44,370 nucleotides of DNA from a virus (IMGVR_UViG_3300045988_005581); one strand, 5' to 3'; counted from the stretch's first letter, positions 17,091 through 41,542 are shown. Translations and numbers: made by a program. The notes: generated from the sequence alone by a model not told the origin.

Positions 17091-17197
17091 GTAGTATGTT
17101 AGAATAATTTTGCGCCTAGTGTCGCACACGAAAAGCGGGTGGTTCCCGTCTGGCGCATTTCCTTTAACCAGTAACCTCTTAACCAAAGGATTAAAGA

Positions 17198-33534: not shown

Positions 33535-33723
33535 ATAAAATTTCGCAATACGGACTATGTTCTCGAAATCATTCATATCAACGGGTTCGAATTCATCCTC
33601 CACATGGTTGTATCGCACCATCGTGCCGTTCAGGAACGTAAACGATTCCGAATGGATATAACCGCCCCAGCGCCATATCATCACAAAATCTTTATCTGTG
33701 GGCATTTCATTTACTTGAATCAT
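33520..33723 (-). CDS. hypothetical protein (67 aa)
   Basis: ORF-track ORF; start overlaps the nuclease gene stop; 3' end overlaps the promoter of the SSB gene. Confidence 0.5.
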   Translation of the reverse strand: MIQVNEMPTDKDFVMIWRWGGYIHSESFTFLNGTMVRYNHVEDEFEPVDMNDFENIVRIAKFYLTPE

Positions 33724-34961
33724 TATAAATCCTCCTCTGTTACCCTATTCCACTCAGGACGTTTGTCGTCTGCCGTTGCAACACATGGTGCGCCGGGCTT
33801 ACGGGTAATGAAGTCTTTCAGTTCTTCTTCCGGTATGACTTTAACCGCTTCGGTTGGCGTCATGAGCACTTGCTTCATTAGCGCTATGCCATACTTGCCA
33901 GCCACTTTCTCTGCATCTTTCCACGCACGATTACCCGGGCGGCCTTCAACCAGCTTGTACCCCGGCACTTTCTTACCGGAATGCAACGCGGCAGCCATCG
34001 CTTTCTCAACCTTGTCGATGTGCTGGCGCAACAACGGCAACTTCTCATACTCAGCTACGAGTTGCTCCGGCGTAAGTTCCAGGGCAAAGTCGTCCTCCAG
34101 TTCTTCCGCCAGCACAGAGTTAACCGTCTTTGTACGCGCGGCGCACTGTTCAGAGAACCGGCACCACTGACAACCATCAACCGACGGCTTGAAGTCTGAC
34201 GCTTTCAGGTTCTTCTTGCCACGGTGATAAGCATCAAGCGCTAACAGTGCGCGTTTCTGTGCGAACTTAGCGAACAGCTCCATACCTTCAACCGAGATGT
34301 CCCACTCCGACGCGCCGCCAGTGTACGGCTGGAAGATTACCAGACGAACAACTGTTATGTTATAACGTCTCTTGAGTCGGCGATAAACACCGAGAGCGTA
34401 AAGCATAAGCTGCTTGTTTTCTTTCGCTTCGACGCGATGCCGCCCGGTTTTCAGGTCGCCGATAATGAGCATGTGCTCGTCGGTGTTTGCCAGTTCCTGG
34501 ACAGCAACGAGGTCAGCGGTTCCGAACGTCTCAACGCCTTCATACCCCGGATGCAATACCTCAGTAAGATTGACACGCATTTCCAGCTTGGCGTAAGTCG
34601 CTACGTCTATAATCGCTTTGCAGTAGTCGGTGTACTTGCGCACCTGCTCAATCATGTCCGCCGTAATCAGTACCGCGCCTTTCATCGGGCTGATTAGCGC
34701 CTTAATCTGACCTTTGCCTTCATCCAGTACGTAAGCGCCGACTTCACGCTCCAACGGCAACGCAGTGCCGCGTATATAGGCGTTGAGATGGACCTCAGCT
34801 ATGGTGTGCATGGCGGTTCCTAATACAGCGGCTTTACCCGACGTGTTAGGGGTATCTTTTTCACACGCCAGCGACGCAGCGCATGACAGCCACTTTTTAG
34901 CGCCTGACGGTGACAGTAAGGCGTGTACATCATTATTGCCGCCTCGTTCTTTTAGAATCAT
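33723..34961 (-). CDS. Cas4/RecB-like PD-(D/E)xK exonuclease (DUF2800-like)
   Basis: 412 aa with a C-terminal Cys cluster CQWCRFSEQC plus an N-terminal Cys (WLSCAASLAC), the arrangement seen in Cas4-type Fe-S nucleases. Confidence 0.7.
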   Translation of the reverse strand: MILKERGGNNDVHALLSPSGAKKWLSCAASLACEKDTPNTSGKAAVLGTAMHTIAEVHLNAYIRGTALPLEREVGAYVLDEGKGQIKALISPMKGAVLITADMIEQVRKYTDYCKAIIDVATYAKLEMRVNLTEVLHPGYEGVETFGTADLVAVQELANTDEHMLIIGDLKTGRHRVEAKENKQLMLYALGVYRRLKRRYNITVVRLVIFQPYTGGASEWDISVEGMELFAKFAQKRALLALDAYHRGKKNLKASDFKPSVDGCQWCRFSEQCAARTKTVNSVLAEELEDDFALELTPEQLVAEYEKLPLLRQHIDKVEKAMAAALHSGKKVPGYKLVEGRPGNRAWKDAEKVAGKYGIALMKQVLMTPTEAVKVIPEEELKDFITRKPGAPCVATADDKRPEWNRVTEEDL

Positions 34962-35218
34962 TATTTAGCCTCCTCCGGTAGTTCTGGTAAATACATCCAG
35001 TGTGTTATACCCATCTCGATATACCGTTTCGTATATAACTGATTTCCGTTTTCATCCAGCCCAGCAGTAATGTCGTCGAAATAGTCCTGTATATGCACAA
35101 AATCAATTCCGCCTTCCGGGAACCCATTATCGTCACATTTACTTCCGTCTACTGAGCAAACTAAAACAGAATCATCTTTTGACTCTGGTAGTGCTTCGTT
35201 TACGCTAACCCAATTCAT
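34961..35218 (-). CDS. DUF551-like protein
   Basis: C-terminal ITHWMYLPELPEE, matching the conserved THWMPLPEPP-type DUF551 end; paralogue at 40990..41175. Confidence 0.6.
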   Translation of the reverse strand: MNWVSVNEALPESKDDSVLVCSVDGSKCDDNGFPEGGIDFVHIQDYFDDITAGLDENGNQLYTKRYIEMGITHWMYLPELPEEAK

Positions 35219-35487
35219 ACCCTGTTATCCCACTGGTCAATTAAATGTCGTGTCTTATGGTCGCAGTGCATGGCCCACCCATACATCGACTCGAAGACAT
35301 AAAAGTCAGGCTTGGCGAAAGTTGTGCGCTTAATCTGTGACACGTGACGGCCTATATCTTTAGGCCGTGGTACTTTTCCTAAGTACGCCATCTCTTCCAT
35401 CTGGTGCGCACCGGACGGAGCACGCAATAGCCATAGCGCCTCTGTGTTATCCCGCCTGTCGACGGCTCGGTAGAGTTGGTAAATCAT
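35215..35487 (-). CDS. hypothetical protein (90 aa)
   Basis: ORF-track ORF coupled to the downstream gene; no motif recognised. Confidence 0.5.
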   Translation of the reverse strand: MIYQLYRAVDRRDNTEALWLLRAPSGAHQMEEMAYLGKVPRPKDIGRHVSQIKRTTFAKPDFYVFESMYGWAMHCDHKTRHLIDQWDNRV

Positions 35488-36311: not shown

Positions 36312-36340
36312 ACTATAATAGCGAACTATTCACATGTCAA
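36312..36340 (-). promoter_or_regulatory. sigma70-like promoter TTGACA-N17-TATAGT (minus strand) with embedded dyad
   Basis: On the minus strand: TTGACA = 36335-36340, TATAGT = 36312-36317; dyad AATAG-N4-CTATT 36317-36330. A second imperfect dyad AATAT-N4-CTATT lies at 36361-36374. Confidence 0.55.
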
Positions 36341-36404
36341 TGGGCTTTTCTAAAATAATTAATATGGTACTATTCACATATCAACTGACTAAGGAGTAAT
36401 TGAC

Positions 36405-36620
36405 ATGCAACCATCTGAACTAGGTATCCGTGTAGAACAACGCCGTAAAGAACTCGGCATCTCCCAGCGCAGTTTGGCGGCCCTGACCGGCGTTTCCCAG
36501 GGCGTGATTAACCAACTGGCACTTGGAGTAACTCAGGACGTCCGCTCGGCAACGCTGTTCAAACTGGCGGAAGTTCTGGAAGTAGACGCCAAGTGGCTGG
36601 CGTTAGGTGAAGGGGCTTAA
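36405..36620 (+). CDS. Cro/CI-type HTH transcriptional regulator (XRE family)
   Basis: 71 aa with LGISQRSLAALTGVSQGVINQL helix-turn-helix; RBS AAGGAG; the only rightward gene inside the leftward replication module, divergent from it. Confidence 0.75.
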   Translation: MQPSELGIRVEQRRKELGISQRSLAALTGVSQGVINQLALGVTQDVRSATLFKLAEVLEVDAKWLALGEGA

Positions 36621-36635
36621 AGCCCCTTTCTTTTT
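36611..36635. terminator. intrinsic terminator overlapping the HTH gene stop
   Basis: AGGGGCT (36611-36617) / AGCCCCT (36621-36627), loop TAA (which is the stop codon), then TTCTTTTT. Confidence 0.6.
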
Positions 36636-39924: not shown

Positions 39925-40160
39925 GAGCTTGTGAAGTATGAACAAGCGACCGCGGTGCGGCAGGAAACGGAGCGGTGCGTCAGCACTGAGTGTAGTGTCG
40001 CTGCCTGCATTCGGAAGGGCCATACTCTATTGTAAATCCCGTCTAAATAACCCAAGTCACTAATAATTAAAAGTTTCTATAGTTGCCGTAAGCAAGGTAG
40101 AGAGTACTTCACTCCGCTGGGGTGGGCTAAAGCCCACCCGCTGCGTTGCGTACTCTTTAA
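39925..40160 (+). ncRNA. candidate short terminated transcript / structured leader (element B)
   Basis: Paralogue of element A: identical 43-nt and 23-nt arms flanking a 54-nt core with about 12 substitutions and one indel; followed by GC hairpin GGTGGGC-TAAA-GCCCACC (40121-40138) and a U-rich stretch. Not shown to be transcribed. Confidence 0.35.
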
Positions 40161-40227: not shown

Positions 40228-40261
40228 TCACTTATCGGAACGAGACAGAGGAGTGATGGTT

Positions 40262-40447
40262 ATGTTTAAGAAGGGTCAGTTGGTTAAAACAAAACGCGGC
40301 GGACAGTACGTAATAGTTACCCAGAATGAGGATGAATATAGTACCGCTGTAGACGTATGGGGTCTTGTACGAAAGAAACATGGTTACGCTTTCAGAGATA
40401 ATTTAACACTCATCGGCAACAATTTTAAATTCAAAGGGGTGAAGTGA
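40262..40447 (+). CDS. hypothetical small protein (61 aa)
   Basis: ATG 40262 with GAGGAG RBS at correct spacing (tool start 40253 is GTG); first ORF of a translationally coupled chain. Confidence 0.55.
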   Translation: MFKKGQLVKTKRGGQYVIVTQNEDEYSTAVDVWGLVRKKHGYAFRDNLTLIGNNFKFKGVK

Positions 40448-40680
40448 TGCAAATCATAATTACAGATAACACCGTTATCTACGAAGAAGATGGTGATACT
40501 CTCGAGAAAATAGGCGTAAATGTGGGTGATGTTTTCAATGTACTGGATTCCTGTGAGGATGGCTGGTGGATTAAGACAGGAAGATACACAATCCCGGTAA
40601 CTAAGGCAGAAGCGAAGGTATACACAACGGCATCTAATCATGATGCTCGTGCCGACGACTCTGAGGGAGGTTGCCGTTAA
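40447..40680 (+). CDS. hypothetical acidic protein (77 aa)
   Basis: ATG 40447 overlapping upstream stop (TGATG), RBS AGGGGTG. Confidence 0.55.
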   Translation: MQIIITDNTVIYEEDGDTLEKIGVNVGDVFNVLDSCEDGWWIKTGRYTIPVTKAEAKVYTTASNHDARADDSEGGCR

Positions 40681-40835
40681 TGAAAATTCGAATAACTGAC
40701 CGCAGGCTTATAGATTTCGGTATCTCGGTAGGTGATGTTTTTCTGGCGTTCAGCAGCAACCATTATGGTTTTATGATTGAGTACAAAGGGTCATTATTGT
40801 TCGTGTATCGGGATGAATGCGAGGTTCTGGTATGA
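40680..40835 (+). CDS. hypothetical small protein (51 aa)
   Basis: TAATG coupling upstream and ATGA coupling downstream; not in ORF track. Confidence 0.4.
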   Translation: MKIRITDRRLIDFGISVGDVFLAFSSNHYGFMIEYKGSLLFVYRDECEVLV

Positions 40836-40993
40836 GAGAAGCATTCGAACGGTGGGCCATCGTCGAGGGTCTGCCGGTTAATAAGGGTTCGAAGAAAGAG
40901 TACCTGAACGTTAAGACGCGTCTCGCGTGGCGGGCGTGGAAAGCTGGTGCGAATGTAATGGCTGGCGCATTTGAGAAGAGAGGCGATTTATGA
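40832..40993 (+). CDS. hypothetical small protein (53 aa)
   Basis: ATGA coupling at both ends; not in ORF track. Confidence 0.4.
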   Translation: MREAFERWAIVEGLPVNKGSKKEYLNVKTRLAWRAWKAGANVMAGAFEKRGDL

Positions 40994-41175
40994 GCAAGTG
41001 GATTAAGTGTAGTGAGCGGATGCCGGAGCCTTATGAATACGTTCTTGTAACTGATTGTTTTGTTGGCTGTGAGGTTATGCGTGTTAATTCAGATGGCTAC
41101 TGGGGGCCTGCAAAGAGTTTATATCACGGTGATATAACGCACTGGATGCCGTTACCTGAGCCGCCGGAGGTGTGA
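40990..41175 (+). CDS. DUF551-like protein
   Basis: C-terminal ITHWMPLPEPPE matches the DUF551 signature; paralogue of 34961..35218. Confidence 0.6.
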   Translation: MSKWIKCSERMPEPYEYVLVTDCFVGCEVMRVNSDGYWGPAKSLYHGDITHWMPLPEPPEV

Positions 41176-41333
41176 TGTTCAATAGTTTGGGATTTTACTG
41201 AGTGACTTACGCTGCTACACAGCAGCGTACAACTTTAACTTAGTGTCGTCAAAAAGCGACACTTCCCTAAAACACTGTTGGTGCTGGAATAAAGTGTCTC
41301 CGATTAGCGACACTAAGCACCAATAAAATTTAC

Positions 41334-41362
41334 TTGCACACTGGGATAGAATAGACTACTAT
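41334..41362 (+). promoter_or_regulatory. sigma70-like promoter TTGCAC-N17-TACTAT with embedded dyad
   Basis: TTGCAC 41334-41339, TACTAT 41357-41362; perfect dyad GAATAG-N4-CTATTC at 41349-41364. Confidence 0.55.
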
Positions 41363-41392
41363 TCATTTACACAGACGGGAGGAGAGACAGAG

Positions 41393-41542
41393 ATGGTTAC
41401 TTTGATGGTTATGGAATTCGAAAACAGCGCAGCAACTTACCGTGAGATGACTATGGCGCAGGCATATCACCTGGCCTCAAACGGCAACTTCTACAAGGCT
41501 CAAATCATCAATGAGTTCGGGGTAATTGACTATGAATTTTAG
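41393..41542 (+). CDS. hypothetical small protein (49 aa)
   Basis: ATG 41393 with GGGAGGAGAG RBS; not in ORF track. Confidence 0.4.
   Translation: MVTLMVMEFENSAATYREMTMAQAYHLASNGNFYKAQIINEFGVIDYEF

Follow-up and report, generated by a model that had tools for sequence, protein, structure and literature searches.

Two DUF551 genes of a Kagunavirus-like coliphage genome belong to separate subfamilies and are very probably independent accessory cassettes

The window analysed here, a stretch of viral DNA of 44,370 nucleotides (IMGVR_UViG_3300045988_005581), carries two small genes of the uncharacterised DUF551 family on opposite strands, and the question it raises is why a compact phage genome should hold two copies of one domain. 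The first-pass annotation regarded them as paralogues, whose retention as two divergent copies would suggest distinct partners or targets. The explanation that we consider the best overall, with a probability of about 0.6, is that both genes are DUF551 accessory cassettes acting as modulators.

The genome and its two DUF551 genes

The 33-43 kb region of the window matched about 498 phage records, most of them Guernseyvirinae siphoviruses of Salmonella and Escherichia. The top matches were Kagunavirus-type coliphages, with SHAK7858 in first place (95.9% identity over 86%), followed by KMB35, BASEL Bas70-76 and 22664BS2. These matches identify the window as the genome of a Kagunavirus-like coliphage (Guernseyvirinae). 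In annotated relatives, the leftward block contains, in this order, the helicase-primase, small ORFs, the PD-(D/E)XK exonuclease, a Gp2.5-like SSB/annealase and the DNA polymerase, and on the rightward side very small ORFs in a divergent array precede the holin and endolysin. The GenBank record of SHAK7858 (OR594183.1, vB_EcoM_SHAK7858) bears the taxonomy line Autographiviridae; Studiervirinae; Kayfunavirus, and the "M" in its name stands for a myovirus; its sequence is nonetheless 96% identical to the Kagunavirus-type siphovirus region of the window, and the record is probably mislabelled.

Two further elements of the layout were noticed. In a short leftward/rightward switch region before the tail-assembly genes, positions 17109..17173 (plus strand) matched the Rfam int-alpA RNA (RF02996) with 36.6 bits, against a gathering score of 35.8 (E=4.7e-4). 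The divergent intergenic DNA between the leftward and the rightward early units holds a hairpin at 40120..40139 with a perfect 8-bp stem (GGGTGGGC-TAAA-GCCCACCC), after which no T-run is present on either of the two strands.

The first-pass annotation had placed one DUF551 gene on the plus strand at 40990..41175 and the other on the minus strand at 34961..35218, both ending in a THWMPLPEPP-like signature, and we found both ORFs exactly there. The former, designated here ORF-B, encodes a minimal DUF551 protein of 61 aa (7.1 kDa, pI 4.86; C-terminal end ITHWMPLPEPPEV), and the latter, ORF-A, a protein of 85 aa (9.6 kDa, pI 4.05, net charge about -13; C-terminal end ITHWMYLPELPEEAK). The signature reads THWMPLPEPP in ORF-B and THWMYLPELP in ORF-A. 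The Pfam scan that had been proposed as a check placed both proteins above the gathering cut-off of PF04448 (DUF551), which is 22 bits: ORF-B scored 58.4 bits (E=1.3e-15, profile 1-68/68) and ORF-A 36.6 bits (E=8.3e-9, profile 2-68/68), values well outside what chance would give. The C-terminal motif common to both can be written as T-H-W-M-x-L-P-E-x-P, with the H, the W and two P invariant in a 40-sequence alignment. An N-terminal motif, W-[IV]-x5-[LM]-P-E, is represented by KWIKCSERMPE in ORF-B and NWVSVNEALPE in ORF-A, and its W and P were also invariant in the 40-sequence alignment.

Beyond DUF551, neither protein matched anything in Pfam, be it an HTH or another DNA-binding domain; neither matched Ead_Ea22 (PF13935), and both are stand-alone DUF551 domains. 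Their PHROG matches were phrog_924, phrog_60 and phrog_7704, all of unknown function. Neither protein matched a PADLOC family of anti-phage defence at E<=0.1, the NCBIfam search gave no meaningful match for either, and a six-frame scan for W-x-x-[LIMV]-P-x-x-P gave no third DUF551 copy in the window. A metal site in ORF-B (Cys7, Cys23, Cys27 and His51) was considered and rejected, as these cysteines are not shared throughout the family.

The dN/dS ratio of ORF-A was 0.026 in comparison to its LSPA1 orthologue (dS 0.38) and 0.027 in comparison to Snoke (dS 1.10), and that of ORF-B was 0.115 in comparison to SHAK7858; both ORFs are under purifying selection. The low dN/dS, together with the start/stop overlaps with neighbouring genes described below, indicated that they are genuine protein-coding genes, and we regard it as practically certain that ORF-A and ORF-B are real DUF551 genes.

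DUF551 is among the most abundant uncharacterised small phage domains, with about 55,000 cluster representatives (54,987 at E<=1e-3 with a profile of both subfamilies described below, counted in 50% identity clusters) and no solved structure. The search of the PDB by sequence with both subfamily profiles yielded no solved structure and one chance match (E=0.37). The confident AlphaFold2 model of ORF-A (pLDDT 90.2, pTM 0.76) shows a small, predominantly beta protein that also has two short helices; the ORF-B model was of low confidence (pLDDT 68.9). The ORF-A model matched the BFVD models of DUF551 proteins from Serratia phage Hera (TM 0.87) and Yersinia phage phiR1-RT (TM 0.64), and this search returned only other DUF551 models. 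In the fold search, no known fold, and none that is DNA-binding, matched the DUF551 model. Ten longer DUF551 proteins, when scanned with Pfam, contained only tandem DUF551 and no partner domain of known function, so that fusions offered no hint of what the domain does. The full-text literature search gave only 12 papers in which DUF551 is mentioned, with no function assigned to it in any of them, and the time-course transcriptome of a Kagunavirus (PMC12645636) does not report ORF-A or ORF-B individually.

Genomic positions of ORF-A and ORF-B

ORF-A overlaps a neighbouring gene at each of its ends. Upstream, an ATGA overlap combines the ORF-A start codon with the stop codon of a 90-aa ORF (35215..35487, minus strand; phrog_4965, function unknown); downstream, the start of a DUF2800 / PD-(D/E)XK exonuclease gene (33723..34961, minus strand; Pfam DUF2800 1e-66, PDDEXK_1 1.2e-9) shares one base with the ORF-A stop codon. 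A sigma-70-like promoter on the minus strand (36312..36340; TTGACA-17-TATAGT, 11/12 matches) heads the leftward unit 36283 to 33723, which includes ORF-A; it is a consensus match only, the total number of such sites in the region being at or below the shuffle expectation. From this layout we infer that ORF-A is co-transcribed with the unit. The site is also one half of a back-to-back pair of promoter-like sites (36312..36356), the other half being TTCACA-16-TAAAAT on the plus strand. The pair sits upstream of a small plus-strand ORF (36405..36620), which lies where relatives have a Cro-like HTH gene and terminates in a strong terminator-like hairpin (36609..36629). Together, the sites, the ORF and the hairpin look like a compact regulatory switch within the leftward block.

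Elsewhere, the two subfamilies to which these genes belong occupy distinct and reproducible early-operon positions, with A repeatedly adjoining recombination genes and B situated in the distal accessory region. The subfamily-A genes of six prophage places are part of a lambdoid early-left operon, downstream of N and beside Kil or cIII, and upstream of Gam/GamL and a RecT or ERF recombinase. The homologue of ORF-A in phage IME207 stands first in a unit that also contains ParB-like and RusA-like genes, and that of MyoSmar belongs to a run of small hypothetical ORFs located downstream of the primase gene, at a distance of about 2 kb. Subfamily B, as seen in three E. coli prophage places, was located in the distal pL region, after recombinase, Anti-RecBCD_p2 (Abc2) or Ead_Ea22 genes, and near the integrase or the prophage end.

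Such neighbours bring up the possibility that ORF-A is an accessory of the recombination module, for example an acidic DNA-mimic inhibitor of a host nuclease (RecBCD/defence), or a partner of the exonuclease or annealase. On this reading, lambda Gam and T7 gp5.9 would be analogues of ORF-A in position and charge, and the very acidic nature of the ORF-A protein agrees with such a role, as does its translational coupling to the PD-(D/E)XK/DUF2800 exonuclease. Subfamily A was found just upstream of RecT/ERF in 6/6 of the prophage places examined; in 3/6, however, it co-occurs with Gam or GamL, which makes it no simple Gam substitute, and the idea of ORF-A as a Gam replacement was down-weighted for this reason. 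The RusA-like resolvase gene of IME207 lies in the same array, about 1.4 kb downstream of the ORF-A homologue, whereas the MyoSmar copy is not beside a recombinase. In Pfam, PDB and fold searches, neither its sequence nor its fold resembled Gam, Abc2 or a solved DNA mimic. In addition, ORF-A is absent from about 98% of the related Guernseyvirinae records with the same exonuclease, so the module works without it. This absence, together with the coexistence with Gam/GamL, argues against an essential or Gam-like role, and we consider it unlikely that ORF-A serves the recombination module.

In comparison to the closest genome, SHAK7858, ORF-A is a precise one-gene indel with unchanged neighbours. 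Only 26 of 50,697 phage records carry it, nine of which are Guernseyvirinae records (seven phages). The nucleotide identity of ORF-A was 93% to LSPA1, where the flanks were 87-93% identical, and 86% to Snoke, with flanks of 88-90%. As its divergence tracks that of the flanks, the gene may represent, at this position, an old polymorphism with repeated loss and not a recent acquisition. Thus, besides the transfers between genera, ORF-A here looks like an old presence/absence polymorphism that moved with its flanks.

ORF-B is the last gene of the rightward array of small ORFs (40253..41175), and its ATG forms an ATGA overlap with the stop codon of the preceding ORF (40817..40993, plus strand; 58 aa, phrog_15836). 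This upstream gene is kept in relatives and constitutes the left boundary of the ORF-B slot; the right boundary is a hairpin 3' of ORF-B (41208..41229, plus strand; TACGCTGCT-ACAC-AGCAGCGTA), with a 9-bp stem and a 4-nt loop. We aligned the slot of the window with those of SHAK7858, DUEC01, 22664BS2 and Snoke, and the upstream gene, the downstream hairpin and the intergenic block beyond the hairpin were all conserved in this five-genome alignment. The hairpin was kept in 5/5 genomes, in 22664BS2 with a GTGT loop and an unchanged stem; since no T-run follows it, it is not a typical intrinsic terminator. Between the two boundaries, the ORF-B alleles (61-101 aa) have only the first ~35 and the last ~25 nt in common, with an unalignable middle in which the nucleotide identity of divergent alleles was 37-52%, and in Snoke the whole ORF-B is deleted. 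The sigma-70 scan gave no convincing promoter for the ORF-B unit, the site counts not exceeding those of the shuffles.

The first 13 codons of ORF-B (40990..41030) are conserved down to synonymous positions: in three divergent alleles, 19/19 degenerate codons were identical, in comparison to 9/27 in the middle (Fisher p ~2e-6, for comparisons that are non-independent). The 3' end (41140..41175), with 16/28 identical codons, did not differ significantly from the middle. This pattern fits the replacement of ORF-B alleles by recombination, one junction of which would fall within the conserved N-terminal codons. Alternatively, the identical 5' codons could be explained by selection on translation initiation or coupling. 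In the remainder of the rightward array (40253..40993), relatives share only segments of 43-130 nt at the gene junctions and the interiors are replaced; this is a classic mosaic cassette pattern. Several ORFs of this part of the array matched only PHROGs of unknown function.

In the intergenic DNA that follows ORF-B, we noticed on the plus strand two 22-nt palindromes located 51 nt apart, AGTGTCG-N8-CGACACT (41242..41263) and AGTGTCT-N8-CGACACT (41293..41314). Of these, DUEC01 has one copy, and SHAK7858, 22664BS2 and Snoke have none. The palindromes look like putative operator or protein-binding sites. They are followed by a block (~41320..41392) conserved in 5/5 genomes, before the next gene. 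The ORF at 41393..41542 (plus strand) is a DUF7170 ORF with homologues in relatives, and this family, as well as those of the DUF2737, NinH and NinZ-like genes of relatives, is also present in the pL/nin regions of lambdoid prophages (three loci), which suggests an accessory-gene pool common to virulent Guernseyvirinae and temperate lambdoid phages.

Independent acquisition and possible function

ORF-A and ORF-B were 28% identical in a MAFFT alignment, and the direct BLASTP alignment was limited to the 12-residue C-terminal motif. When the two subfamily alignments were compared by hhalign, they proved clearly homologous (99.3% probability, E=7.5e-21). The HMM scores were about 30 bits across the subfamilies and 99-148 bits within the own subfamily. 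In the subfamily alignments, the ORF-A subfamily has an additional invariant core, VHIQDYFDDITxGxDxxGNQLYTK, and the ORF-B subfamily a hypervariable, indel-rich middle. Such differences in the central region would be consistent with binding partners that also differ.

The unrelated Shuimuvirus IME207 encodes a protein with 88% identity to ORF-A; the identity of ORF-A was 63-67% to proteins of Serratia/Erwinia myoviruses, 60-70% to those encoded in Klebsiella, Citrobacter, Rahnella and Serratia genomes, 47% to Acinetobacter phage proteins and 38% to proteins of T4-like Yersinia phages. E. coli prophages encode proteins that share 82-88% identity with ORF-B, relatives of which are also found in hundreds of Stx and Salmonella phages. 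Among the relatives of the window, presence is patchy. Both genes were found in 22664BS2, fTaEco01 and fTaEco03, as in the window (HMM scan and annotated records), and ORF-A only in Snoke and LSPA1, whose whole genomes were scanned. TU03 has ORF-A and no ORF-B within the 5.3-kb region examined, and SHAK7858 and DUEC01 have ORF-B and no ORF-A at the exonuclease slot (regions of 10-13 kb examined). The closest relatives in other phage genera and prophages, together with the patchy presence, point to independently acquired family members and not to a local duplication; we therefore consider it highly probable that the two genes are independent accessory cassettes and not local paralogues.

The claim that a DUF551 pair of divergent sequence lies on opposite strands thus stands, as indicated by Pfam and by the low identity, whereas the claim of retained paralogues is not supported, given the patchy presence and the closer relatives elsewhere. 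If the two genes were local paralogues of this lineage, both retained in a compact genome and sub-functionalised towards different partners, one would expect what was indeed observed in part: both are DUF551 genes with differing cores, both are under purifying selection, and they occur together in at least four genomes (that of the window and those of the three phages named above). At 28% identity, however, the copies fall into separate subfamilies with members in unrelated phages and prophages, and neither is fixed among close relatives. Moreover, multiple copies of DUF551 are common, so two copies need no special explanation. Many of the best matches in the profile search carry 2-4 DUF551 stretches per polypeptide, and Pfam confirms up to three in one protein. 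Of 80 IMG/VR loci that the profile picked out, 15 had two or more DUF551 ORFs within the up to 20 kb fetched for each; one of these 15 resembles a split gene, and in two the pair is on opposite strands. The local-paralogue explanation is largely refuted by this distribution, and we hold it to be quite improbable. We see in ORF-A and ORF-B dispensable members of a known and very large family, very probably acquired independently of each other, and the first-pass interpretation over-reads them.

Dispensable genes of this kind could also be selfish or effectively neutral passengers, with no host-directed function, spread by recombination at gene junctions. The patchy presence, the indels exactly at gene boundaries, the conserved junction DNA and the viability of isolates without ORF-A or ORF-B agree with it; strong purifying selection (dN/dS of 0.03 for ORF-A, at dS of 0.38-1.1, and 0.12 for ORF-B) and the tens of thousands of family members with invariant Trp, Pro and His do not, and we consider the passenger explanation very improbable.

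In our preferred reading, that of accessory cassettes acting as modulators, the two genes would represent two old subfamilies drawn from an accessory-gene pool common to enterobacterial phages, with one optional slot for each. ORF-A would be a one-gene cassette, translationally coupled between the phrog_4965 ORF and the exonuclease in the leftward replication/recombination operon, and ORF-B a gene whose core is swapped between the conserved 5' junction (the first ~13 codons) and the downstream hairpin. Both would yield small, acidic and soluble proteins from early or DNA-metabolism operons, the timing being judged from the operon position. The conserved Trp/Pro-rich N- and C-terminal motifs would build a common beta-rich scaffold, which for ORF-A and ORF-B is demonstrated at the sequence-profile level only, and the variable central segment would bind and modulate a host or phage protein target. 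With cores that differ in this way, ORF-A and ORF-B would most likely act on different targets.

The small proteins of the lambdoid pL operon, Kil, cIII, Gam and Ral, act by binding a host protein. They are encoded at the same early-left operon positions as the subfamily-A genes and, according to Pfam, have no homology to ORF-A or ORF-B; the proposed analogy is positional. Size, charge, genomic position and this analogy suggest that ORF-A and ORF-B may be early protein-binding modulators with distinct targets, a tentative proposal to which we give somewhat less than even odds. Another proposal, and a more doubtful one, is that DUF551 is a phage-specific scaffold with a "fixed clasp" and a "variable core". 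In such a scaffold, the Trp/Pro termini would be constant and the central segment would be swapped or diversified to retarget host proteins, with the 5' end of ORF-B doubling as a recombination junction; A would be tied to the recombination module in temperate and virulent phages, and B would form a separate specificity class. If this were true, a genome with A and B would neutralise two different host factors, for example of defence or DNA metabolism. It is hardly credible that the two proteins are DNA-binding transcriptional regulators of early operons, since, in spite of their early regulatory regions, the nearby Cro-like and excisionase-like HTH genes and the DUF551 fusions to HTH or sigma-70 proteins reportedly present in InterPro (PMC10834534), they are acidic, as are their subfamilies (median pI 4.4 for A and 4.3 for B), which argues against DNA binding, they contain no HTH or DNA-binding Pfam domain, and their beta-rich predicted fold matches no DNA-binding fold.

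Comparison with known systems

DUF551 proteins of the Guernseyvirinae have already been deposited (IPR007539), including LSPA1_42 (YP_009113189, "DUF551 domain-containing protein") and 22664BS2_062, and TE1_053 of fTaEco01 and TE3_054 of fTaEco03 are annotated as "belongs to DUF551 superfamily". At the same genomic position as ORF-A, 22664BS2 has a 100% identical protein and LSPA1 one of 97.6% identity (LSPA1_42); for ORF-B, proteins of 100% identity are encoded by phiEc3, K-01 and K-02. The arrangement of A on the minus strand and B on the plus strand is the same in 22664BS2, fTaEco01 and fTaEco03, from which the window differs in nothing of substance. As proteins identical to one or the other copy and the two-gene arrangement are public, and DUF551 has long been catalogued, the locus is already known. 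The window pairs a 22664BS2-type ORF-A with a phiEc3-type ORF-B, a combination present in 0/9 of the relatives examined. The useful leads are the subfamily-specific positions and the natural presence/absence panel: the Kagunavirus isolates with A only, with B only, with both, or with swapped alleles form a ready, isogenic-like panel for studying the function of the domain.

Outside the Guernseyvirinae, a DUF551 motif is contained in YfdS, encoded in the yfdQRST cluster of the E. coli cryptic prophage CPS-53 (PMC4776307). Over-expression of yfdQRS or yfdQRT inhibits the initiation of chromosomal replication, with only YfdR binding DnaA; the loss of yfdS leads to H2O2 sensitivity, YfdS is interchangeable with YfdT, and no activity was assigned to DUF551 (PMC4776307). 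By description, YfdS can be likened to the window proteins in its DUF551 motif and in its phage-type origin, being prophage-encoded.

In the Ea22-V2 protein of Stx phages, an early protein of the exo-xis region, the C-terminal DUF551 is a portable acidic module (PMC10834534). YfdS and Ea22-V2 are thus both early products of a prophage or phage, and each has a phenotype directed at the host. The solved C-terminal domain of lambda Ea22 is not DUF551. Unlike Ea22-V2, ORF-A and ORF-B are stand-alone proteins without the Ead_Ea22 N-terminal and coiled-coil parts; in E. coli prophages, relatives of ORF-B occupy the same distal pL region as Ea22-V2, one of them near an Ead_Ea22 gene.
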